A stretch of DNA of 38,751 nt from a phage. The position numbers were made by a program, and so were the translations under genes. Of this stretch, positions 10,762-36,016 are shown piece after piece; within the stretch, counting starts at the first letter, position 1, and every line of letters begins with the position of its first letter. The notes beneath the pieces were generated by a model that worked only from the letters and a program-made list of their open reading frames with translations, did not search any database and was not told the origin of the DNA. The stretch lies in the sequence record PZ465525.1; one strand, 5' to 3'.

Positions 10762-13700
10762 ATGGATAAGTACGATAAGAACGTACCAACTGAGTACGAT
10801 GGTCTGTTCCAGAAAGCTGCTGATGCCAACGGGGTCTCCTATGACCTTCTGCGCAAAGTGGCGTGGACAGAATCCCGCTTCAAGCCTACCGCCAAGTCTA
10901 AGACTGGCCCGTTGGGCATGATGCAATTCACAAAGGCCACCGCTACGGCGATGGGCCTCAAAGTAACCGGAGGTGATGACGACGAACGTCTGGTGCCAGA
11001 ACTGGCAATCAACGCTGCCGCTAAGCACCTAGCGACCCTCGTTGGGAAGTTCGATGGTGACGAACTCAAGGCTGCCCTTGCGTACAACCAAGGGGAAGGC
11101 CGAGTTGGCGGTAAGCAACTGGAAGCCTACGCCCGAGGCGACTTCGCGTCTATCTCCGAGGAAGGTCGCAACTATCTGCGCTCCCTGATGGACGTGGCTA
11201 AATCCCCTATGGCTGGTCAATTGGAGTCCTTTGGTGGTATCACCCCAAAGGGTAAAGGCATCCCTGCTGACCAAGCGTTTGCAGGGATCACCAACGACCG
11301 GAAGCGCAAGGTAGGCACTGACCTGCCGGAGTCCACTGGGTTTGACGTTAAAGGTATCACACAGGAGGAAAAGGCAGACTCGTTCGGCCATTCCTTTTGG
11401 AAGTACCACGGCGAAACCCTTGACGAATACAACGAGCGTTCCACATTCTTCGGATTCTCTGATGCTGCCGAAGCAGAACTCTCTAATTCACTCCTTGGAG
11501 TTGCCGCTCGTGCTGCTCGCCTCGATAACGGTTACGATGTTTTCATCGACACTATTACGCCGACTAAGTGGAACTCTCACGTCTGGACTCAAGAAGAGCT
11601 AGAGAAGATTAGAACCGAGGTGAAGAACCCTGCGTACATCAACGCGGTGACTGGTGGTTCACCAGAGAACCTTGACGCCCTCATTAAGCTGGCTAACGAG
11701 AACTATGGGCTGGACGCTAAGGCGGCTGATGCTGGTCTTGGGGCTAAGCTGAGTGCGGGTGTCTTGGGTGCTGGTGTTGACCCGTTGAGTTACGTTCCGG
11801 TGGTAGGCGTGACCGGTAAGGGCTTCAAACTGGTGAACAAGGCGATGGTAGTAGGTAGCCAGAGTGCTGCACTTAACGTGGCCTCTGAGGGTCTGCGTAC
11901 CTCCGTTGCTGGTGGTGATGCTGACTACGCTGGTGCTGCCTTGGGTGGCTTTGTGTTCTCCGCTGGTATGACTGCCTTGGGTGACACCTTGGCTTCCAGA
12001 ATGAGCCGCACTAAGCCGGACGCTGAGTTCACCAACGAGTTCGCTGGGCCAGCCATCCGAATGGAAGCCCGAGAGACTGCACGTAACGCCAACTCCACTG
12101 ACCTGTCCCGAGTGAACACTGAGGGTATGGAGTTCAAAGGAGAACACAACGGCGTTCCGTATGCAGACTTCAAGGCCGAGGAAGGAGCGGTAGTCCTGCA
12201 CGATGGTTCAGTCATTAGTGCTGGCAACCCGATTAACCCGAAGACTCTGAAAGAGTTCTCCGAGGTTGACCCAGAGAAGGCAGCTTGGGGCATCCGCCTT
12301 GGTGGGCTGACCGAGATTGGCTTGAAGACCCTTGGGTCTACCAATGCCGACGTTCGGAGACTTGCGAGTGACCTTGTGCGCTCACCGACTGGTATGGAGT
12401 CCGGTTCTTCCGGTAAGTTCGGGGCTACCGCCTCTGACATCTATGAGCGCCTTAAAGGCACCGACCAGCGAACCTACAACGAGCTGTATGCTGCGATGCG
12501 GGTAGCGATGGATGGCCCTGAGTTCTCCACTGGTGCTGCCAAGATGTCTCGGGAACAGGCTCGCTACGAGGTTTACCGTAGGGCTGCCCTTGCGATTGAG
12601 CGACCGGAACTCCAAGCCAACCTGACGAAGGCTGAGCTGGGTGTGATGAACATCATCAAGCGACACTTCGACACTAAGCGTGAGCTGATGGAGAACCCTG
12701 CGACCTTTGGCCGATTGGATGCCAAGAGTATCTTCCCAGAGAGTCGCCATAAGGGAACCTACGTCCCACACGTTTACGACCGGAGTGCTAAGCAACTGAT
12801 GATTCAGCGGTACGGTGCCGAAGGTCTCCAAGAGGCCATTGCCCGTTCGTGGCTCACCAGCTACGCATCCCGTCCAGAGGTTAAGGCCCGAGTTGACGAA
12901 ATGTTGGCTGAACTTCATGGTGTCAAAGATGTAACGCCGGACATGGTGACTAAACACGCTATGGACAAGGCTTATGGTATCTCTCATTCCGACCATTTCT
13001 CCAACAGCTCTATCATTGACGAGAACATCGAGGGTCTGGTAGGTATCGAGAACAACTCCTTCTTGGAGGCTCGTAACCTCTTTGACTCTGACCTTCCGGT
13101 GACTCTGCCGGACGGCCAACAGTTCTCCGTGAATGACCTGCGTGACTTCGATATGTTCCGCATCATGCCAGCGTATGACCGCCGTATCAACGGTGACATT
13201 GCCATCATGGGCTCAACAGGGAAGACCGCTAAGGAACTCAAGGATTCCATCATGGAGCTGAGCAAGAAGGCCGAGAACAACGGTCAGCTCAAGGGCGAAG
13301 TGGAGGCTCTCAAGGATACCGTCAAGATTCTCACTGGGCGAGCCCGTAGGAACCATGACACTGCCTTTGAGACTGCACTACGTTCCATCAATGACCTTGG
13401 CTTCTTCGCAAAGAACGCCTACATGGGCGCTCAGAACATCACCGAGATTGCTGGTATGCTGGCAACAGGTAACGTTCGAGCACTGGGCCACGGTATCCCG
13501 ATTCTGTGGGACACTCTCTACAAGTCAAAGCCTGTAAGTGCTTCTGAGCTCAAGGAAATCCATGCGTCCCTGTTCGGGCGTGAGATTGACCAGTTGATTC
13601 GTCCCAAGCGAGCTGACATTGTGCAGCGCCTTCGGGAATCGACCGACACTGGGCCACTTCTCGCCAACATCGTTGGAACCTTGAAGTACAGCACTCAGGA

Positions 13701-14727
13701 ACTTGCAGCCCGCTCTCCGTGGACTAAGCTACTGAACGGCACGACCAACTACATTCTCGATGCTGCCCGTCAAGGGCTACTTGGGGATGTCATTGAGGCG
13801 ACCCTCAAAGGCAAGACAACCAAGTGGGAATCTGCTGGTTTCCTTCGAGGTGCCTCTGTGTCTCCTGAGCAGATGGCCGGAATCCGGTCACTAATTAAGG
13901 AACACATGGTTCGTGGAGAGGACGGTAAGTATTCCGTTAAGGACAAGCAGGCATTCAGTCTTGACCCACGGGCGATGGACTTGTGGCGACTGGCCGATAA
14001 GGTGGCCGATGAAGCGATACTGCGGCCACACAAGGTTTCCTTACAGGACTCCAAGGCGTTCGGTGCGCTTGGCAGGATGGCGTTGCAGTTCAAGACCTTC
14101 ACCATCAAGTCCCTGAACTCCAAGTTCCTGCGGACGTTCTATGATGGCTACAAGAACAACCGAGCGATTGACGCTGCACTCACTGGGATTATCTCAATGG
14201 GTCTTGCTGGCGGATACTACGCTATGGCTGCCCACGCTAAAGCCTACGCTCTACCTGAGGAGCGGCGAAAGGCGTACCTTGAGAAAGCACTGAACCCGAC
14301 CATGATTGCTCACGCTTCATTGTCCCGAAGTGCCCAACTGGGTGCCCCGATGGCGATGGTTGACCTTGTAGGTGGTGGCGTCTTTGGCTTTGAGTCCTCA
14401 AAGATGGTCCGTTCGTCAATCCTTCCGAAGGACACTTCGTACCAGCGCGACCCTAACAAGCCGTACACCGCTCAGGAGGTATTGGGAAACATGGGGTCTA
14501 ACCTGCTGGAACAGATGCCTTCGGCTGGCTTTGTGGCTAACGTTGGTGCTTCCGTGCTTAACGCTGCGGGAGTCGCTACGGCAACCAACAAGGCTACTGA
14601 GCAGGACTTTATGACTGGCTTGATGAACTCCTCTAAGGAGCTCGTACCGAATGACCCGTTGACCCAACAGTTAATCCTCAAAATATACGAAGCCAATGGC
14701 ATCAATTTGAAGGAGAAGCGCAAGTAA
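10762..14727 (+). CDS. 16: gp16 internal virion protein D with N-terminal lytic transglycosylase domain
   Basis: 1321-aa ORF (T7 gp16 is 1318 aa); N-terminal transglycosylase-like signature (...TESRFKPTAKS...GPLGMMQFTKAT...); stop TAA is the first three bases of phi17. Confidence 0.95.
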   Translation: MDKYDKNVPTEYDGLFQKAADANGVSYDLLRKVAWTESRFKPTAKSKTGPLGMMQFTKATATAMGLKVTGGDDDERLVPELAINAAAKHLATLVGKFDGDELKAALAYNQGEGRVGGKQLEAYARGDFASISEEGRNYLRSLMDVAKSPMAGQLESFGGITPKGKGIPADQAFAGITNDRKRKVGTDLPESTGFDVKGITQEEKADSFGHSFWKYHGETLDEYNERSTFFGFSDAAEAELSNSLLGVAARAARLDNGYDVFIDTITPTKWNSHVWTQEELEKIRTEVKNPAYINAVTGGSPENLDALIKLANENYGLDAKAADAGLGAKLSAGVLGAGVDPLSYVPVVGVTGKGFKLVNKAMVVGSQSAALNVASEGLRTSVAGGDADYAGAALGGFVFSAGMTALGDTLASRMSRTKPDAEFTNEFAGPAIRMEARETARNANSTDLSRVNTEGMEFKGEHNGVPYADFKAEEGAVVLHDGSVISAGNPINPKTLKEFSEVDPEKAAWGIRLGGLTEIGLKTLGSTNADVRRLASDLVRSPTGMESGSSGKFGATASDIYERLKGTDQRTYNELYAAMRVAMDGPEFSTGAAKMSREQARYEVYRRAALAIERPELQANLTKAELGVMNIIKRHFDTKRELMENPATFGRLDAKSIFPESRHKGTYVPHVYDRSAKQLMIQRYGAEGLQEAIARSWLTSYASRPEVKARVDEMLAELHGVKDVTPDMVTKHAMDKAYGISHSDHFSNSSIIDENIEGLVGIENNSFLEARNLFDSDLPVTLPDGQQFSVNDLRDFDMFRIMPAYDRRINGDIAIMGSTGKTAKELKDSIMELSKKAENNGQLKGEVEALKDTVKILTGRARRNHDTAFETALRSINDLGFFAKNAYMGAQNITEIAGMLATGNVRALGHGIPILWDTLYKSKPVSASELKEIHASLFGREIDQLIRPKRADIVQRLRESTDTGPLLANIVGTLKYSTQELAARSPWTKLLNGTTNYILDAARQGLLGDVIEATLKGKTTKWESAGFLRGASVSPEQMAGIRSLIKEHMVRGEDGKYSVKDKQAFSLDPRAMDLWRLADKVADEAILRPHKVSLQDSKAFGALGRMALQFKTFTIKSLNSKFLRTFYDGYKNNRAIDAALTGIISMGLAGGYYAMAAHAKAYALPEERRKAYLEKALNPTMIAHASLSRSAQLGAPMAMVDLVGGGVFGFESSKMVRSSILPKDTSYQRDPNKPYTAQEVLGNMGSNLLEQMPSAGFVANVGASVLNAAGVATATNKATEQDFMTGLMNSSKELVPNDPLTQQLILKIYEANGINLKEKRK

Positions 14728-14747
14728 TACGACTCACTATAGGGAGA
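14725..14747 (+). promoter_or_regulatory. Phage RNAP class III promoter (phi17)
   Basis: Exact consensus TAATACGACTCACTATAGGGAGA. Confidence 0.95.
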
Positions 14748-14797
14748 GGGAAGACCTCCTTCTCCCGATTTCTGATTCACTTTAAGAGGAGGTTTGC

Positions 14798-16660
14798 ATG
14801 GCTAACGTGATTAAAACTGTGCTGACTTATCCGCTGGATGGCTCGACTACGGACTTCAACATCCCGTTCGAGTATCTGGCCCGTAAGTTTGTCGTGGTGA
14901 CTCTGCTCGGTGTAGACCGCCGAGTCCTGACGTTGCCCACCGATTACCGATTCGCTACCCGCACGGTCATTGCAACCAACAAGGCGTGGGGGCCAGCCGA
15001 TGGTTACACTCAAATCGAAATCCGCCGAGTGACTTCGGCCACTGAGCGACTGGTGGACTTTACGGATGGCTCGATTCTCCGAGCGTATGACCTGAACGTC
15101 GCCCAAATACAGACCATGCACGTTGCTGAGGAGGCCCGTAACATGACCGCCGATACTATCGGTGTCAACAACGATGGTCATTTGGACGCCCGTGGTCGTA
15201 GGATTGTTAACTTGGCGTATGCCACAAGTGACCATGATGCCGTTCCTTTAAAGCAGATTAAAGAGCGTGAATCCTCTGCATGGAATGCCGTAACAAAAGC
15301 TAACGAACATGCTGACCGTTCCAATAGGGAGGCAAACCGTTCTCGTGACGAGGCCAGCCGCGCTCAACGTGAAGCTGACCGCTCAGCTCAACAGGCAGGT
15401 GTCTCTACGCAACAAGCAGTCGAGGCCAAGAAGCAAGCTGACCGTTCCAGCTCCGAGGCTGACCGAGCCAAAGGTTATGCTGACAGTATGACCGCAAGTG
15501 TCGCTGAGGCCAAGAAGCAAGCTGACCGTTCCGGCTCTGAGGCCAATCGTGCCAGTGATGGGGCCAATCGTGCTGCCGGAGAAGTGACTAAAGCTGCTGC
15601 TGAGGTTGCCAAGGCTGCTACACACGTTGGGACCGCTAAGGGACATGCTGATAGGGCTAACATTGAGGCAAACCGCTCCAAAGGTGAGGCTGACCGTGCT
15701 AAGTCTGAGGCCGACAAGTTGAAAAACATGAACGAGTTCGCTGGGGCGATTAAGGAGGTAACACCGAACAGCATTACGTTCAACCGTGGGGTTGTAGCCA
15801 ATAGCGCTGGGTTCCGATCAATGGTGGCCCCCCACCAGACTCCAAACGTTGGTGTTTGGCGGCAGGACAAGTCCGAGCTGAACATGACTGTTGACGAGAG
15901 TGGAAACACTGGATTCGTTGGGGCTGTTGGTACTCCGTGGCTTGGTTACTGGAACACCACTAAGGACACCTACGTTAGCACGACTACGTGGAACTACGAC
16001 AGCGGGGGTCGCCAAATCAAGGGAACTCTTGAGGTAGGGTACGGAAACAACTCGTCTATCCTTACAAGCTCTTTGGGTGAAAGTGATGCTGGCAACTGGA
16101 CATGTTTGACCAACTATAAGTGGTACAATGGGGGTGTCCGGATTGGCTCTGTACGTGGAAGCGGTCAAGATTGCAACGGACTCCTCCGCACAATCGATGG
16201 CTCTATAGGAAAATACATGGACTACTGGCAGAAAGTTGGTGAGAACAAGCATATTTTCTATAACCGCGAAGGTGGGAAAGCTCTTGAGGTACACGCAAAC
16301 GGCGATATGATTATGGAGTGGGGCGGCCTCCTGTCAGACCAAATACGAGCACGCTCACCCAAGCGGTGGACTTGGGTATACCTTGGGGCTGTAGCTGTTT
16401 CCAGTGACTTCGTTCTGAACTTCGGTCGCGATGTACGCGGGCTCCGTGGGTTCTTCGGCTTCCGTGGTGATCGAAGAGAGGTGGTGTATAAGCCGTTCAC
16501 GTTCCCGCCGCTGGACTGCAACTTCCAGATTAACCGAAAGGGGGACTGGCAGGTGTTCCAACTGACAAACGGTGGAACCACACTGATTCGCCGCTACGGA
16601 TGGCATGAGGGCGGGGACAACTACGAGTTCTACGCTGAGACTCCAAACGACAACTACTAA
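14798..16660 (+). CDS. 17: gp17 tail fibre protein (conserved N-terminal adaptor domain, coiled-coil shaft, divergent C-terminal receptor-binding region)
   Basis: 620 aa; N-terminal ~150 aa MANVIKTVLTYPLDGS...FEYLARKFVVVTL...ILRAYDLNVAQIQTMHVAEEAR nearly identical to T7 gp17; the shaft has repeated ADRS-type heptads; the C-terminal half has no resemblance to T7 gp17 (553 aa) as recalled. Confidence 0.93.
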   Translation: MANVIKTVLTYPLDGSTTDFNIPFEYLARKFVVVTLLGVDRRVLTLPTDYRFATRTVIATNKAWGPADGYTQIEIRRVTSATERLVDFTDGSILRAYDLNVAQIQTMHVAEEARNMTADTIGVNNDGHLDARGRRIVNLAYATSDHDAVPLKQIKERESSAWNAVTKANEHADRSNREANRSRDEASRAQREADRSAQQAGVSTQQAVEAKKQADRSSSEADRAKGYADSMTASVAEAKKQADRSGSEANRASDGANRAAGEVTKAAAEVAKAATHVGTAKGHADRANIEANRSKGEADRAKSEADKLKNMNEFAGAIKEVTPNSITFNRGVVANSAGFRSMVAPHQTPNVGVWRQDKSELNMTVDESGNTGFVGAVGTPWLGYWNTTKDTYVSTTTWNYDSGGRQIKGTLEVGYGNNSSILTSSLGESDAGNWTCLTNYKWYNGGVRIGSVRGSGQDCNGLLRTIDGSIGKYMDYWQKVGENKHIFYNREGGKALEVHANGDMIMEWGGLLSDQIRARSPKRWTWVYLGAVAVSSDFVLNFGRDVRGLRGFFGFRGDRREVVYKPFTFPPLDCNFQINRKGDWQVFQLTNGGTTLIRRYGWHEGGDNYEFYAETPNDNY

Positions 16661-16671
16661 AGGACAACCTC

Positions 16672-16687
16672 AGGCCCACGGAAGGGC
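16672..16687 (+). promoter_or_regulatory. Short hairpin downstream of gene 17
   Basis: GGCCC-ACGGAA-GGGCC: perfect 5-bp inverted repeat with a 6-nt loop; possible RNA processing or stability element. Confidence 0.35.
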
Positions 16688-16692
16688 CATCT

Positions 16693-16715
16693 TTATGACT
16701 CACTATAGGAGACAT
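16693..16715 (+). promoter_or_regulatory. Degenerate phage-promoter-like element between genes 17 and 17.5
   Basis: TTTATGACTCACTATAGGAGACA: matches the consensus core but has -12 T for C, one G missing at +1..+3, and a weak AT-rich upstream part. Confidence 0.35.
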
Positions 16716-16722
16716 TTCGTGT

Positions 16723-16926
16723 ATGTTGACACTAGATTTTAATAACGAGGTCATTAAGGCAGCGCCTATCGCTGGCGTTGCTGGGGCCGATGGTGTGGCT
16801 CGCCTGTTCTGGGGCCTGTCACTTAACGAGTGGTTCTACGTGGCCGCTATCGCCTACACAGTGGTTCAGATTGGTGCCAAGGTAGTCGATAAAGTAATTG
16901 ATTGGAAGAAAGCCAGTAAGGAGTAA
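16723..16926 (+). CDS. 17.5: gp17.5 class II holin
   Basis: 67 aa, MLTLDFNNEVIKAAPIAG...WFYVAAIAYTVVQIGAKVVDKVIDWKKASKE, near-identical to the T7 holin (recalled); one hydrophobic segment. Confidence 0.93.
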   Translation: MLTLDFNNEVIKAAPIAGVAGADGVARLFWGLSLNEWFYVAAIAYTVVQIGAKVVDKVIDWKKASKE

Positions 16927-19974: not shown

Positions 19975-20365
19975 GGTCTGCCTAAGGCTCAACGCTGAGG
20001 GATTCAGCGGTATGATTGCATCACACCACTTCATCCCTATAGAGTCAAGTCCTAAGGTATACCCTAAAGGCCACACCTTAGGATTATCAATGGGTCTACC
20101 CAGAAGTCCACCTAAGGGTGGGCTGTACTGTGTGTGTGGTCTTAAAGAGGGAACCTAGGGAGTGCCCTAAGGAGACCCTTTAAAATATACCACAAAAATC
20201 TGAGCGACTATCTCACAGTTCAGAAACCCAAAGTTCCCCCATAGGGTATCCCAAGGGGTGGCCCTCTTAATGGCCCCACTTGAGACGCTTTGAGAGACCC
20301 TAAGGGATGACCTAAGGTTTACCATTGAGAGACCCTAAGGACTAAGCCTAGACCTAAGGGGAGGC
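19975..20365. repeat. Cluster of short CCTAAGG / CCTTAGG palindromic motifs at the right-end / concatemer-junction region
   Basis: About nine CCTAAGG-type motifs by eye (e.g. GCCTAAGGCTC, GTCCTAAGGTATACCCTAAAGG, CCACCTAAGGGTGG, GACCCTAAGGGATGACCTAAGG, GACCTAAGGGGAGG). Confidence 0.6.
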
Positions 20366-22485: not shown

Positions 22486-23586
22486 ATGAACGTTAACGAA
22501 ATCTCCGCCCGTGTCTCTGAAATAGCTGCTCTGGGTCTCTCTGAGTTGACCAAACTCCAGCCGATGCTGGTGAAGCTAATTGCCGACATTGTGAACCACG
22601 AAACGGAAAACGGCTATTTGACAATGAAAGAAGGCGACCGTGCGCTAGGGGCGATGCCCTATTGGAACAGCCTGATGGTTTACTTGAAGGATGCTGGCTT
22701 TGAGCTGCTGGGCAATGGTCACTTTTCGGCTGCCTTTAAGCACCACCTTCTGCCACAAAAGGTTATCAAGGTCGGGTTCAAAAAAGAGGACTCAGGGGCA
22801 GCATACGCTGCGTTCTGCCGCATGAACCAAGGCAAGCAAGGCATCCCTACCATCCACGACATTCAACGTCACGCTGGCTGTTACACTGTGGTTCTTGACG
22901 AGCTGCGCAGCATCCAGACCGATGGGTGGGGGCTCATGGCTGATAGCCAATGGGTCGACGAACAATACGACTGCGCCCGTCAGGTAATCCAGTACGGTCT
23001 CTGCCCGAGCTACTACGAGGGCTTCGCGGCGGACGAACTCGCCAAGACCTGCGCGGAAATACGCAAGTTCTTCGAGGGAATCGCAGTCTTCGATATGCAC
23101 GCCGGTAACGCAATGGTTGACAAAGACGGCAATCTGGTAATTACCGACCCTGTATCGTTCGCCTCTGCGCTGCCTGAGAATGAGTTCCTCGTAGACCCCG
23201 AGGAACTCCTAGCGGAAATCGAGCAGATAGCCGAGCGCAAGATTATTGAGCGGTGCCGTGAGCGAAAAGCCAAGCGCGACCCTAACGGAATATTCCGGTT
23301 CAACCTCAAACAGCGCCAAAAGCGCCGCAAGGAATGCAAGAAGGCCGAACGCCTCCGGAAACGGGATGCTGCCAAGCTGGCGCTCCAAGCGCACAACCGT
23401 GATGTGGCCCTTAAGGAGCTTGGCATAACTCTCTGGATGAAAGCCTACTTCGACCTCCCAAACGCAAAGATGGTCGAAATGGAGGCGCAAGTTGCCGCCA
23501 AGGTCGCTAACCGCAACCACAAAGCAATTGCACTGGGTCAGGCTCTCGATATTGACAAAGAACTTGACGCAATGTTCCAAGGTTGA
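22486..23586 (+). CDS. 0.7: gp0.7 serine/threonine protein kinase / host transcription shutoff protein
   Basis: Start at ATG 22486 (ORF track 22432 is upstream in the hairpin); conserved blocks FELLGNGHFSAAF, VIKVGFKKEDSGAAY, RHAGCYTVVLDEL, KFFEGIAVFDMHAGN, ITDPVSF and ...IDKELDAMFQG match T7 gp0.7 (recalled). Confidence 0.9.
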   Translation: MNVNEISARVSEIAALGLSELTKLQPMLVKLIADIVNHETENGYLTMKEGDRALGAMPYWNSLMVYLKDAGFELLGNGHFSAAFKHHLLPQKVIKVGFKKEDSGAAYAAFCRMNQGKQGIPTIHDIQRHAGCYTVVLDELRSIQTDGWGLMADSQWVDEQYDCARQVIQYGLCPSYYEGFAADELAKTCAEIRKFFEGIAVFDMHAGNAMVDKDGNLVITDPVSFASALPENEFLVDPEELLAEIEQIAERKIIERCRERKAKRDPNGIFRFNLKQRQKRRKECKKAERLRKRDAAKLALQAHNRDVALKELGITLWMKAYFDLPNAKMVEMEAQVAAKVANRNHKAIALGQALDIDKELDAMFQG

Positions 23587-26929: not shown

Positions 26930-28048
26930 ATGATGAACATCAAGACCAACCCGTACAAAGCTGTGTCCTTCAACGAGAAAGCCGTTGAGAAGGCGCTCAA
27001 GCGTTCGCACTACCTGATTGCTGACATCAAGTATGATGGTGTGCGCGGGAACACTCTGGTCAAACCGTCTCAAGGTGCTTGCTGGCTCTCTCGGGTATCG
27101 AAACCGATTCCGGCGATTGAGCACCTGAACGATGGCGCTGCCCGTTGGGACAACCTGCTCAAGGATAACCGCTGCATGTTCCCGACTGGCTTTATGCTTG
27201 ATGGCGAGCTGATGGTTGACGGTGTGGACTTCAACACTGGCTCCGGCCTGCTGCGAACCAAGTGGCTAGACTCCAAGAATCAGGAGTTCCACAACGAGTT
27301 CCTGCCGCGCAACGTCAAGAAGTCCGAGAAGATTCCGTTCCGTCTGGACGCTGGCCTGCTCAAGGTCGTCATTTACGCCGTGCTCCCGATTGAAGTAGTG
27401 GAGTCCGGTGCCGACTATCCGGTCAAGAACCTGCTGATGCAGGAACACGTCAAGAACATGCTGCCTCTGCTCCGCGCTCACTTCCCTGAGATTAGCTGGC
27501 AAGCGGCTGAGTCCCATGAGGTGTATGATATGACCGAACTGTCTGCACTGTACGAAATGAAACGCGAGGAGGGTCACGAAGGTCTCATTGTGAAAGACCC
27601 GAGCGACACCTACAAGCGCGGCAAGAAGACTGGCTGGTGGAAGATGAAGCCAGAGAACGAGGCTGATGGTGTCATTCAGGGTTTGGTATGGGGCAACAAG
27701 GGTCTTGCTAACGAAGGCAAGGTGATTGGCTTTGAGGTGCTGCTAGAGTCTGGCCGTGTGGTCAACGCTTGCAATATCTCCAAGGCCCTGATGGACGAGT
27801 TCACGGCTGCCGTCAAGGCTAACACTCCGTGCGCTGGTAGCGGAATCTGTCAATACGCTCAGGACATTGCGATGCCTGAACATCACTGCTCTGGACAGTG
27901 CCAGTACGAGGGCCACGCGATGGCCAACCCGTACCACGGCTGGGCTTGTCAAATCAGCTACATGGAGGAGACCCCTGACGGCTCCCTTCGCCACCCTTCC
28001 TTTGTGATGTTCCGTGGCACCGAAGCGGAACCGACCGAGAAGATGTAA
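26930..28048 (+). CDS. 1.3: gp1.3 ATP-dependent DNA ligase
   Basis: 372 aa; MMNIKTNPYKAVSF...IADIKYDGVRGN (adenylation motif KYDGxR) ...EGLIVKDP...WWKMKPE...DGSLRHPSFVMFRGTE; highly similar to T7 ligase (recalled). Confidence 0.96.
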   Translation: MMNIKTNPYKAVSFNEKAVEKALKRSHYLIADIKYDGVRGNTLVKPSQGACWLSRVSKPIPAIEHLNDGAARWDNLLKDNRCMFPTGFMLDGELMVDGVDFNTGSGLLRTKWLDSKNQEFHNEFLPRNVKKSEKIPFRLDAGLLKVVIYAVLPIEVVESGADYPVKNLLMQEHVKNMLPLLRAHFPEISWQAAESHEVYDMTELSALYEMKREEGHEGLIVKDPSDTYKRGKKTGWWKMKPENEADGVIQGLVWGNKGLANEGKVIGFEVLLESGRVVNACNISKALMDEFTAAVKANTPCAGSGICQYAQDIAMPEHHCSGQCQYEGHAMANPYHGWACQISYMEETPDGSLRHPSFVMFRGTEAEPTEKM

Positions 28049-30807: not shown

Positions 30808-30870
30808 ACCGAAAGGTTGTCCCTTTGTTTCAACACAGGGAGGAAGCTATAGAGGCCATGTCTAACTTGA

Positions 30871-32586
<1,716 letters not shown>

Positions 32587-33299: not shown

Positions 33300-35258
33300 A
33301 TGATTGTCTCAGACATCGAATCAAACGGCCTACTTGAGACCACTACTAAATTCCATTGCGCGGTTATCTATGACTACAGTACAGGAGAATACAGCAAGTA
33401 TCGCCCTGTGGACTTTAATAAATACCTTGACGCATTAGAAGCTGAGGTAGCAAAGGGAGGACTCATAGTAGGACATAACTTCGCTAAATTTGACATCCCT
33501 GCGTTAACCAAGTTGGCTAAGTTGCAATTGAACCGAGAGTTCAACATTCCTCGTGAGAACTGTGTGGATACCCTCGTGCTGTCCAGACTGATTCACTCGA
33601 ACCTCAAGGACACCGATATGGGTCTCCTGCGCTCCGGTAAACTGCCGGGCAAACGCTACGGTTCCCACGCTCTGGAAGCATGGGGCTACCGCTTAGGCGA
33701 AATGAAGGGTGAGTACAAGGACGACTTCAAGGCTGCTCTTGAGGAGCAAGGTGAGGAGTACGTTGAGGGAATGGAGTGGCGCTCATTCAACGAGGACATG
33801 CTGGCCTATAACGTTCAGGACGTTGTGGTCACTAAGGCCCTCCTTGAGAAGCTACTTTCCGACAAGCACTACTTCAAGCCTGAGGTGGACTTCACGGATG
33901 TCTCTGCGGATACCTTCTGGATGGAGGCTATCGAGGCGATTGACGTGGAGCACCGAGCCGCTTGGTTGCTCGCTAAGCAGGAGCGCAACGGCTACCCGTT
34001 CAACACCAAGGCTATCGAAGACCTGTACGTTGAGCTGGCCTCTCGCCGCTCTGAGTTGCTGAAGCGACTGACCGAGACGTTCGGCTCTTGGTATCAGCCT
34101 AAGGGTGGCACCGAAATGTTCCTACACCCACGCACTGGTCAGCCGCTCCCGAAGTATCCGCGAGTGAAGACCCCGAAGGTCGGAGGCATCTTCAAGAAGC
34201 CCAAGAACAAAGCCCAGCGCGAAGGTCGTGAGCCCTGTGAGCTGGACACTCGGGACTTCGTTGCTGGTGCCGTTTACACTCCGGTGGAGCACGTTGTCTT
34301 CAACCCTTCGTCCCGCGACCACATCCAGAAGAAGCTCCAAGAGGCTGGCTGGGTGCCCGAGAAGTTCACCGATAAGGGTGCTCCGGTAGTGGACGACGAG
34401 GTGCTTGAAGGCGTTGTTGTGGACGACCCTGAGAAGCAAGCAGCCATCGACCTCATTAAGGAGTACCTGATGATTCAGAAGCGAATCGGTCAGAGTGCTG
34501 AGGGCGACAAGGCGTGGCTGCGCTACGTTGCGGAGGACGGTAAGATTCATGGTAGCGTTAACCCTAACGGTGCGGTTACTGGTCGTGCCACTCACGCCTT
34601 CCCGAACCTTGCGCAAATCCCAAGTGTTCGGTCTCCGTATGGCGAACAGTGCCGTGCTGCATTCGGGGCTGAACACCATCTTGATTACGTCACTGGGGAA
34701 CCTTGGGTTCAAGCTGGTATCGACGCATCCGGTCTTGAGCTGCGCTGCTTGGCCCACTTCATGGCTCGATTCGACAACGGCGAGTATGCCCATGAGATTC
34801 TGAACGGTGACATTCACACCAAGAACCAGTTGGCTGCCGAGCTGCCGACCCGAGACAACGCCAAGACCTTCATCTACGGTTTCCTCTATGGGGCCGGAGA
34901 CGAGAAGATTGGTCAGATTGTTGGTGCTGGTAAGGAACGCGGTAAGGAACTCAAGAAGAAATTCCTTGAGAATACCCCTGCGATTGCTGCGCTCCGTGAG
35001 TCCATCCAATCGACTCTCGTTGAGAGTTCCCAATGGGTGGCTGGTGAACAGCAAGTCAAGTGGAAGCGCCGTTGGATTAAGGGCATGGATGGCCGTAAGG
35101 TTCACGTCCGTAGCCCACACGCTGCGCTGAACACTGTGCTGCAATCCGCTGGTGCGCTTATCTGCAAGCTGTGGATTATCAAGACCGAGGAAATGCTCAT
35201 TGAGAAGGGCTACAAGCACGGCTGGGATGGAGACTTTGCGTACATGGCATGGGTGCAT
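33300..35258 (+). CDS. 5: gp5 DNA polymerase, exon 1 (codons 1-653)
   Basis: Near-identical to T7 DNA polymerase through ...GWDGDFAYMAWVH, then drops into 8 unrelated codons and a stop (35282); the real coding sequence resumes at 35861. Confidence 0.93.
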
Positions 35259-35860
35259 AAACTATCTCATTGTGCACGTTAAATCTGGTGAACTCGGTGA
35301 AACCCTTCTGGGGGCAATACCGAGCCAAGCCATAGGGAGGATATATGAGAGGCAAGAAGTTAATCCTTGCGACCACAGAGAGTGGTTGTATCATCCCTAC
35401 GTCACACAAACTTAATGCTGATGGTTATTTCCGAAAGAAGACGAACGGTGTCCTAGAGATGTATCACAGGACAGTCTGGAAGGAGCACTACGGAGATATA
35501 CCAGAAGGGTATGAAGTAGACCATAGGTGTAGGAACAGGGCGTGCTGTAACGTAGAGCACCTTCAGTTACTAGAAGGTTCTGAGCATACAGTAAAGACAA
35601 ACAGGGAACGCTACGCTGACCGTAAAGAGTCCGCGAAGGAATACTGGTTGGAGACTGGATGCACAGGAACACACTTAGGTGAGAAGTTTGGTGTAACGTT
35701 CTCTGCAGCTTGTAAGTGGATTAGAGAGTGGAAGGCGTAGAGACTATCCGAAAGGAGTAGGGCCGAGGGTGAGACTCCCTCGTTACCCGAAGCGCCAGAC
35801 AGTCAACTCAAAGACTGATGATATAGTCCGACACTCCTAGTAATAGGAGAATACAGAAAG
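35259..35860 (+). mobile_element. Group I-type self-splicing intron interrupting gene 5 at polymerase motif C, carrying an HNH homing endonuclease ORF
   Basis: 602-nt insertion between the H and DE codons of the conserved VHDE motif; exon 1 ends in T (35258) and the insert ends in G (35860); GTGCAC at 35272-35277 can pair with the exon end GTGCAT to form P1 with a U-G pair at the splice site; downstream helices (GACTAT/ATAGTC, GAGGG/CCCTC, GGAGT/ACTCC) present. Confidence 0.85.
35345..35740 (+). CDS. Intron-encoded HNH homing endonuclease
   Basis: 131-aa ORF with RBS GGGAGG; HNH/zinc motif ...EGYEVDHRCRNRACCNVEHLQLLEGSEHTVKTN... Confidence 0.88.
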   Translation: MRGKKLILATTESGCIIPTSHKLNADGYFRKKTNGVLEMYHRTVWKEHYGDIPEGYEVDHRCRNRACCNVEHLQLLEGSEHTVKTNRERYADRKESAKEYWLETGCTGTHLGEKFGVTFSAACKWIREWKA

Positions 35861-36016
35861 GATGAGATTCAAGTAGGTTGCCGTACCGAAGAGATTGCTC
35901 AGGTAGTCATTGAGACCGCCCAAGAGGCTATGCGCTGGGTAGGCGAGCACTGGAACTTCCGGTGTCTGCTGGATACCGAAGGCAAGATGGGGCCTAACTG
36001 GGCCGTGTGCCACTAA
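35861..36016 (+). CDS. 5: gp5 DNA polymerase, exon 2 (C-terminal 51 codons)
   Basis: In-frame continuation DEIQVGCRTEEIAQVVIETAQEAMRWVGEHWNFRCLLDTEGKMGPNWAVCH*, matching the T7 DNA polymerase C-terminus; joined product is 704 aa, the T7 length. Confidence 0.9.
   Translation, partial: DEIQVGCRTEEIAQVVIETAQEAMRWVGEHWNFRCLLDTEGKMGPNWAVCH

Follow-up and report, generated by a model that had tools for sequence, protein, structure and literature searches.

Gene 17 of the Teseptimavirus recorded as PZ465525.1 encodes a tail fibre of 620 aa (amino acids) which, judging by its sequence, is a mosaic of four modules, not two, bearing the signature of module exchange. The window, which is the whole stretch of 38,751 nucleotides (nt) that was analysed, is a circularly permuted genome of about 38.7 kb that shares 94-96.5% nt identity with five phages: Stenotrophomonas phage IME15, the Aeromonas phages PZL-Ah1, avDM11-UST (avDM11) and vB_AroA_KFSA9 (KFSA9), and Escherichia phage Ebrios. 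This clade, and not T7, is the informative comparison for the fibre. With a probability of roughly 85%, gene 17 is a functional fibre gene of a T7-like phage that was built by recombination and whose distal module was imported. A first-pass annotation of the same DNA had already read the gene as a product of host-range module exchange, and this holds in two respects: identity to the clade shifts in steps at domain boundaries within gene 17, and the synonymous sites of the distal module are saturated when set against the synonymous divergence of the backbone. The ORF also has the start and end peptides that the annotation had quoted. The fibres used for comparison are those of IME15 (AFV51478.1), PZL-Ah1 (QMP81574.1), avDM11 (UYD60892.1), Ebrios (AVJ51925.1), KFSA9 (XMN70149.1, 692 aa (amino acids)) and T7 (NP_042005). 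The gene is divided as follows.

14798..16660, + strand: gene 17, tail fibre; intact open reading frame (ORF) of 620 aa plus stop
14798..15223, + strand: module 1, N-terminal adaptor docking the fibre on the tail; aa 1-142
15224-15712, + strand: exchangeable shaft unit; about aa 143-305
15248..15730, + strand: module 2, alpha-helical shaft of 23 heptads; aa 151-311
15707..15760, + strand: conserved shaft-to-tip joint EADKLKNMNEFAGAIKEV, a recurrent crossover point; aa 304-321
15713..16012, + strand: module 3, proximal beta-rich 'neck' of the KFSA9 type; aa 306-405
16013..16657, + strand: module 4, distal module; aa 406-620, with a variable first part at aa 406-520 followed by a terminal beta-sandwich at aa ~521-617

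The case for import is carried by the distal module. Estimated by the Nei-Gojobori method, the synonymous divergence (dS) of gene 16, which represents the backbone, is 0.10-0.15 relative to KFSA9 and IME15, with a ratio of nonsynonymous (dN) to synonymous divergence of 0.13-0.18, and fibre aa 1-305 differ from KFSA9 and Ebrios by a dS of 0.05-0.10 (dN/dS 0.00-0.38). Over aa 406-620, in contrast, synonymous sites are saturated against every relative (proportion of synonymous differences, pS, 0.64-0.83), and dN/dS, which is not computable for most comparisons, amounts to 0.08-0.14 where it can be estimated. Saturation next to a backbone dS of 0.10-0.15 argues against divergence in place from a clade-type ancestor and therefore for import of the module. 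At the protein level aa 406-620 are 64-65% identical to tips of the IME15 type, 56% to the metagenomic fibre P0002, 52% to PZL-Ah152 and 47% to KFSA9, and tblastn alignments of the tip with its relatives are collinear, at 57-63% identity over 98-99% of its length. The tips of IME15, PZL-Ah1 and avDM11 are its closest known relatives, collinear with it and saturated at synonymous sites; the terminal domain DVRGLRGFFGF...FPPLDCNFQINRKGDWQVFQL is shared collinearly with tips of the IME15/PZL-Ah1 type, along with the neck and the variable region. PHROG 4242 ('tail fiber protein'), which covers residues 1-611 of the fibre (E 5e-192), also matches the tip alone (E 4e-15).

Near-identity to a characterised fibre, which the first-pass annotation had named as the observation that would turn the C-terminal region into an ordinary lineage variant, was looked for and not found, the best match being 62-65%. 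For the distal 215 aa, the phage, IMG/VR, JGI metagenome, GTDB and 15-billion-protein collections contain no relative that exceeds 65% identity, and the exact window protein is absent from the last of these. Relatives of the tip number none in JGI metagenomes and GTDB genomes, and IMG/VR holds IME15 alone. A word-indexed search of 5.8 billion proteins, by sequence and by family profile, returned just one PZL-Ah152-like fragment, and HMMER over 1.84 billion representatives gave five matches, all of them T7-like fibres derived from the Sequence Read Archive (SRA) and all at most 56% identical with the exception of an 87-aa fragment. The tip family is small, comprising five sequenced isolates and a handful of SRA contigs. 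One of its members, P0002, is a 702-aa fibre from a Logan assembly and a three-way chimera in which an adaptor and shaft of the PZL-Ah152 type are followed by a collar/HxH region of the Ebrios type (aa ~248-467) and then by a distal module of the window family (aa 486-700). The module boundary near aa 402-405 has been used independently in P0002, which shows that the distal module can be appended after a different receptor-binding domain.

Upstream of the distal module, similarity to the different relatives ends at different points, namely at ~15249 for fibres of the IME15 type, at 15712 for Ebrios and at 16013-16029 for KFSA9, and it returns at 16691, from where identity to all relatives is again ~96-97%. 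The adaptor (aa 1-142) is 98-100% identical to those of all five relatives, with a dS of 0.05-0.07 against KFSA9 and Ebrios. Residues 1-155 match PF03906 (Phage_T7_tail; E 3.6e-62, 209 bits against a cut-off of 25.2), and phmmer aligns the adaptor with the solved N-terminus of T7 gp17 (7BOZ/8E4G) at E 1e-82 to 1e-86. The first ~150 aa had been described as almost identical to T7 gp17; they are T7-like, but the identity is just 87% over aa 1-142 and 85% over aa 1-150. DNA similarity to IME15, PZL-Ah1 and avDM11 is lost at the end of this module, and these three phages carry a T7-type shaft which is shorter than that of the window and only ~36% identical to it, whereas the shafts of Ebrios and KFSA9 are 91-93% identical. 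In Ebrios, adaptor and shaft together are 96.2-96.6% nt identical to the window up to 15712, a position inside the EADKL of the joint, beyond which this E. coli C phage has an unrelated collar/HxH tip with 18% identity to that of the window. T7 (ADKLENYNGLAGAIDKV) keeps the joint motif, and so do all sampled fibres, with a different tip following it in each. KFSA9 provides the closest overall frame, with an identical adaptor, a shaft at 93%, a neck at 65-85% and the same short type of 3' intergenic region. Its neck shows 76-96% nt identity in 45-nt windows, with a dS of 0.22, a dN of 0.16 and hence a dN/dS of 0.73, which suggests local relaxed or diversifying selection; IME15, PZL-Ah1 and avDM11 carry a different neck allele. 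At about 16013 the nt identity to KFSA9 drops to 36-58%.

The shaft consists of 23 uninterrupted heptads in one register over aa 151-311, with a lag-7 autocorrelation of z = 9.6, in agreement with the earlier description of a shaft of ADRS-type heptads. Among the 21 clearest heptads position a is alanine or valine in all 21 and position d is alanine or serine in 19, and a coiled coil is accordingly predicted after residue ~150, as in T7-like gp17 proteins. The same cassette, with 23 ADRS heptads in the same register and ending in an ADKLxNM joint, occurs in EG1, S523, BA14, Yepe2, Bas104 and Yanou. Its carriers span two genera and have E. coli, Yersinia pestis or Cedecea as hosts, and the tip differs in each; BA14, Yepe2 and S523, for example, are members of Berlinvirus which share the shaft with the window but differ from it in tip, genus and host. 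The shaft is thus a common standard cassette. Between the same landmarks the shaft of T7 has 17 heptads, six fewer than that of the window (42 aa). The fibre had been described as having a longer C-terminal region than T7 gp17 (620 against 553 aa), and these lengths are right, although 42 of the 67 additional residues lie in the shaft and just ~25 after it.

The DNA that encodes the shaft contains a repeated 49-nt unit with a 12-nt core, GCTGACCGTTCC.

15296..15344, + strand: repeat copy 1, weaker; core at 15311-15322
15422..15470, + strand: repeat copy 2; core at 15437-15448
15506..15554, + strand: repeat copy 3; core at 15521-15532
starting at 15653: repeat copy 4, weaker

Copies 2 and 3 are identical over their first 27 nt and 88% identical over the 49-nt unit, and they are spaced by 84 nt or four heptads. 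An exact repeat of 27 nt is well outside the range of codon-shuffled sequences (mean 10.4, maximum 14, 200 shuffles). The first-pass annotation had recognised this repeat as a pair whose second member lay at ~15511; the repeat is real, but that member occupies 15506-15554 and the array has four copies, with three exact 12-nt cores, instead of two. The 27/27 match between copies 2 and 3 is specific to the window genome (25/27 in Ebrios and KFSA9) and could be due to gene conversion or to chance. The core is present three times in the fibre genes of the window (15311, 15437 and 15521) and Ebrios and five times in that of KFSA9. Since all repeat spacings are multiples of 21 nt, unequal crossover between the copies would keep the heptad register. 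The suggestion that such repeats drive variation in shaft length finds direct support in KFSA9, whose fibre gene has a perfect tandem duplication of 2 x 210 nt (KFSA9 fibre locus sequence 1934-2353) which adds 70 aa or ten heptads. At the duplication junction the upstream (5') flank of copy 3 is joined to the downstream (3') flank of copy 1 at GCTGACCGTTCC, and the distance from copy 1 to copy 3, 210 nt, equals the size of the duplication. The junction directly illustrates how heptad-phased repeats alter shaft length without loss of the coiled-coil register, and the identity of the two units at 210 of 210 positions implies that the event is recent. Such changes are nevertheless rare and probably usually selected against, as eight of the nine sampled fibres with this shaft type have exactly 23 heptads. 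The paper on KFSA9 speaks of a 'divergent tail fiber' and apparently does not describe the duplication as such (PMC12828811).

T7 gp17 and the window fibre share the same genomic position, the same phi17 promoter sequence, the same adaptor family and a collinear layout of adaptor, coiled coil, ADKLxNxN..AGAI..V joint, beta region and terminal beta-sandwich; T7 differs in its shaft allele, six heptads shorter, and in a post-shaft region shorter by ~25 aa. In phmmer comparisons, pairwise similarity to T7 stops at aa ~336 of the window fibre (T7 aa 294), and the crystallised T7 tip is not matched by sequence. The claim that the C-terminal region is unlike the T7 tip is therefore correct as far as pairwise sequence is concerned, but by fold and by profile the region is a diverged homologue. 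The AlphaFold model of aa 306-620 has a mean predicted local distance difference test (pLDDT) score of 51, with values of 70-89 over the last ~95 residues, which form an eight-strand beta-sandwich. Among 350,542 PDB chains, the top four matches to this model are all T7 gp17 371-553 (4A0T/4A0U; Foldseek E 5e-5, probability 1.0), and structural alignments to the T7 tip have 11-16% identity. The profile of the tip family aligns with the T7-type tip profile over 105 columns (window aa 486-598, T7 aa ~426-537) with a probability of 96.6% and E 5.8e-10; hhalign with the single sequence is weak (E 0.012), and a search of BFVD gave weak matches to other phage fibres. Together the fold search and the profile-profile match establish the window tip as a very diverged homologue of the T7 tip fold and not a foreign domain, and a C-terminal beta-sandwich of the 4A0T fold, as expected of a T7-like gp17, is present. 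Fold alignments extend further, to 132-190 residues of 4A0T, towards the interdigitated 'pyramid' domain that precedes the tip in T7-like gp17, but in this region the pLDDT is below 50 and the models, built from 7-sequence alignments (mean pLDDT 51 and 59), are of monomers only, in which an interdigitated domain cannot form; the neck and the variable region are for this reason not interpreted structurally, and the fold-search ranking and the terminal domain are used instead.

The gp17 of T7-like phages is a homotrimer, present as six fibres per virion, that binds lipopolysaccharide (LPS), and the receptor of the T7 fibre is rough E. coli LPS. By analogy with T7, the product of gene 17, which would be transcribed from its own phi17 promoter, is expected to form a homotrimer, with aa 1-142 as the part that docks on the gp11/gp12 tail, aa 151-311 as a coiled-coil shaft of ~24 nm, aa 306-405 as a beta-rich neck and aa 406-620 as the distal receptor-binding end with a beta-sandwich tip of the T7 type. 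The gene was most probably put together through recombination, homologous or mediated by microhomology, among relatives infecting the same cell, with crossovers at the conserved inter-domain joints. The adaptor is that of the clade at large, the shaft is a widespread cassette of the BA14/Berlin type and the neck is shared with the Aeromonas phage KFSA9, while the distal 215 aa probably stem from a lineage, so far unsampled, to which the tips of Aeromonas phages and IME15 are related. The in-phase 12-nt cores of the shaft can in addition mediate unequal crossover, by which its length changes by whole heptads. The distal module most likely sets the surface receptor, probably LPS, and the strains or species that are recognised, and a change of host range may have accompanied its acquisition. 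The host is likely to be Aeromonas or a relative, because the tip family has no named carriers apart from Aeromonas phages and IME15, and the IME15 fibre matches those of the former at 95% identity.

Several points weigh against the proposed import of a new host-range module. A donor for the distal module did not turn up in the phage, IMG/VR, JGI, GTDB and protein collections, and the exchange is deduced from patterns of divergence. Except for the last ~95 residues, the structural models have low confidence. The terminal beta-sandwich, which is the specificity domain in T7, is the best conserved part of these tips (69-77%) and aa 406-520 are the most variable, which makes it uncertain where the actual specificity surface lies; within the sandwich, the differences concentrate in certain predicted loops and at the C-terminal tail, which is weakly suggestive of a T7-like exterior-loop pattern and is not relied on here. 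Finally, the tips of KFSA9 and PZL-Ah152 are only 47-52% identical to the IME15 type, and all of these alleles, including those at 47% identity, are nevertheless found on A. hydrophila phages, so that a new host species does not necessarily follow from a new allele. Together with the fact that the named relatives of the tip all come from A. hydrophila phages or from IME15 with its ~95% identical fibre, this opens the possibility that the exchange was real but host-neutral, with the same receptor class and the same host species (for example LPS of Aeromonas hydrophila) and at most a shift of strain or serotype. Such an outcome is possible but rather unlikely: aa 406-620 are saturated and at most 65% identical to any relative, with changes clustering in predicted loops and in the C-terminal tail; single substitutions in the tip loops of T7 already shift host preference (PMC8043750), and differences in host range are reported between KFSA9 and PZL-Ah1 (PMC12828811). 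At the other extreme, the distal 215 aa may confer a receptor specificity that is new among characterised phages, possibly for a host other than A. hydrophila, with the neck (dN/dS 0.73) acting as a second adaptive contact surface and the 12-nt cores as a built-in device for retuning fibre length, as in KFSA9; this is speculative, and in this full form quite improbable.

Explanations that dispense with import fare worse. Divergence of the distal region in place, under strong diversifying selection and without any recombination, could appeal to the neck, where a dN/dS of 0.73 at a near-backbone dS of 0.22 against KFSA9 indicates that some accelerated change in place has occurred in the gene, but it is highly improbable in view of the pS of 0.64-0.83 against every relative beside a dS of 0.10-0.15 in the flanking gene 16, and of an abrupt distal boundary that coincides with the one used independently in P0002. 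An assembly chimera, in which reads of two co-occurring related phages were joined inside gene 17, is scarcely credible. The window is a circularly permuted assembly and the joints do lie in allele-conserved sequence, where assemblers can switch haplotypes; however, no joint breaks the reading frame, each one falls at a domain boundary, none of the sequenced phages could have supplied the distal part, and both flanks of the novel part are of the KFSA9 type, as for the replacement of a patch in a single genome. For the C-terminal region, the probability of an enzymatic tailspike or depolymerase, or of a collar/HxH tip like that of T4 gp12, is negligible, even though such domains are carried by other gp17 proteins with the same adaptor (K11-type spikes in the PDB, collar/HxH regions in Ebrios and P0002). 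Pfam finds no enzymatic or collar domain in the window fibre, and both fold and profile searches favour a T7 fibre tip. A K11-like depolymerase was rejected since Pfam detects no catalytic domain and the PDB spikes match adaptor residues 4-156 alone, and an Ebrios-type collar/HxH tip since the HxH-bearing region is found in Ebrios and P0002 and not in the window, whose tip is only 18% identical to that of Ebrios.

A recombinant gp17 with an imported distal module fits well with what is known of fibre exchange. In T7 the N-terminal 149 aa of gp17 bind to the tail, the part beyond these ~149 aa comprises the shaft and the receptor-recognition tip, and swapping of the C-terminal part transfers host range (bioRxiv 10.1101/020891), while in the tip domain it is the exterior loops that govern host-specific activity (PMC8043750). 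In a natural T3/T7 hybrid the crossover lies inside gene 17, at codon 167, with 8 nt of microhomology (PMC3276506). As in this hybrid and in engineered gp17 swaps, where the crossover lies just after the adaptor at short microhomology, the adaptor of the window fibre has been kept and the receptor-binding part exchanged; in those cases, however, the donors are known and the change in host range was measured, whereas the donor of the window module is unsampled. A divergent fibre in the clade was already noted in the KFSA9 paper (PMC12828811). Gene 17 shows every testable defining feature of a gp17 fibre, and its new part is the distal allele, which enlarges a very small family by one specificity cassette. 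The window fibre thus illustrates the current view of phage host-range evolution without changing it. Its value lies in the setting, as six phages with ~96% backbone identity and differing combinations of shaft, neck and distal module, with E. coli C, Aeromonas hydrophila and Stenotrophomonas as their reported hosts, constitute a clean natural experiment, and the engineering of T7-type fibres can use the joints at about aa 142-151, 305 and 405 directly as splice points.

The surroundings of gene 17 are conventional, and the order of gp16, gene 17 and gene 17.5 is that of T7 and of six relatives.

10762-14727: gp16 (internal virion protein D), upstream neighbour of gene 17
14725..14747, + strand: phi17 promoter, exact match to the 23-nt T7 class III consensus TAATACGACTCACTATAGGGAGA
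14784..14792, + strand: strong ribosome-binding site AAGAGGAGG, 5 nt before the ATG
16661..16722, + strand: gene 17/17.5 intergenic region of the short KFSA9 type, placed by alignment; 3' limit of the variable region
16723-16926: holin gene 17.5 (67 aa), downstream neighbour of gene 17

The phi17 promoter overlaps the stop codon of gp16 (14725-14727), and T7, BA14 and Yepe2 have an annotated phi17 promoter at the corresponding position. The intergenic region lacks a segment of ~90 nt bearing a 40-aa ORF that is present in IME15, Ebrios and PZL-Ah1. A promoter-like sequence before the holin gene, ATGACTCACTATA-GGAGACA, is degenerate, with one G missing. The hairpin GGCCCACGGAAGGGCC on the 3' side does not exceed shuffled sequence in stability (z -0.98), and a role as terminator is not claimed for it.

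Across the genome, 97% of the window is matched in KFSA9 at 85% identity or more, and just three segments lack a match of at least 85% in both KFSA9 and IME15.

16030-16348: part of the fibre gene
27814-27931: part of the ligase gene
35258-35860: intron of the DNA polymerase gene

As just one of the three lies in a structural gene, the fibre is the sole structural or adsorption locus that departs from the clade. Two further segments, 22909-23521 and 30830-31077, have no match of at least 85% in IME15 but are matched in KFSA9; the former lies in the region of the protein kinase (gene 0.7), and the latter immediately before the primase/helicase gene or at its start. Small-scale mosaicism is thus an additional feature of the early and replication regions of the clade. 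The DNA polymerase gene is interrupted by a group I intron (window 35249-35850), which matches Rfam RF00028 over the full model length with 37.7 bits, below the gathering score of 50, and E 6e-8, and which contains an ORF (35345-35740) for a homing endonuclease of the HNH_3 type (131 aa; Pfam E 1.6e-16). The KFSA9 polymerase, which is uninterrupted, places the exons by tblastn at 33300-35258 and 35861-36013, and the insert is absent from KFSA9 and IME15. The ligase ORF (26930-28048) encodes 372 aa compared with 340 aa in KFSA9 and IME15, the gap in size being 32 aa rich in Cys and His (...NTPCAGSGICQYAQDIAMPEHHCSGQCQYEGHAMANPY...), inserted into the C-terminal OB domain, which may be a metal-binding knuckle. 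IME15 is labelled as a phage of Stenotrophomonas maltophilia, and two Aeromonas hydrophila phages have fibres ~95% identical and genomes ~96% identical to its own; either the receptor is shared, or the recorded host of IME15 deserves re-examination. Position 1 of the Ebrios and KFSA9 records aligns with the window at ~20166-20211, and the physical genome ends and the terminal repeat should therefore lie at ~20.17-20.21 kb. Gene 17 is overlapped by minus-strand ORFs; the annotated genes of the relatives are nearly all on the + strand, the sole exception being one short hypothetical ORF in KFSA9.

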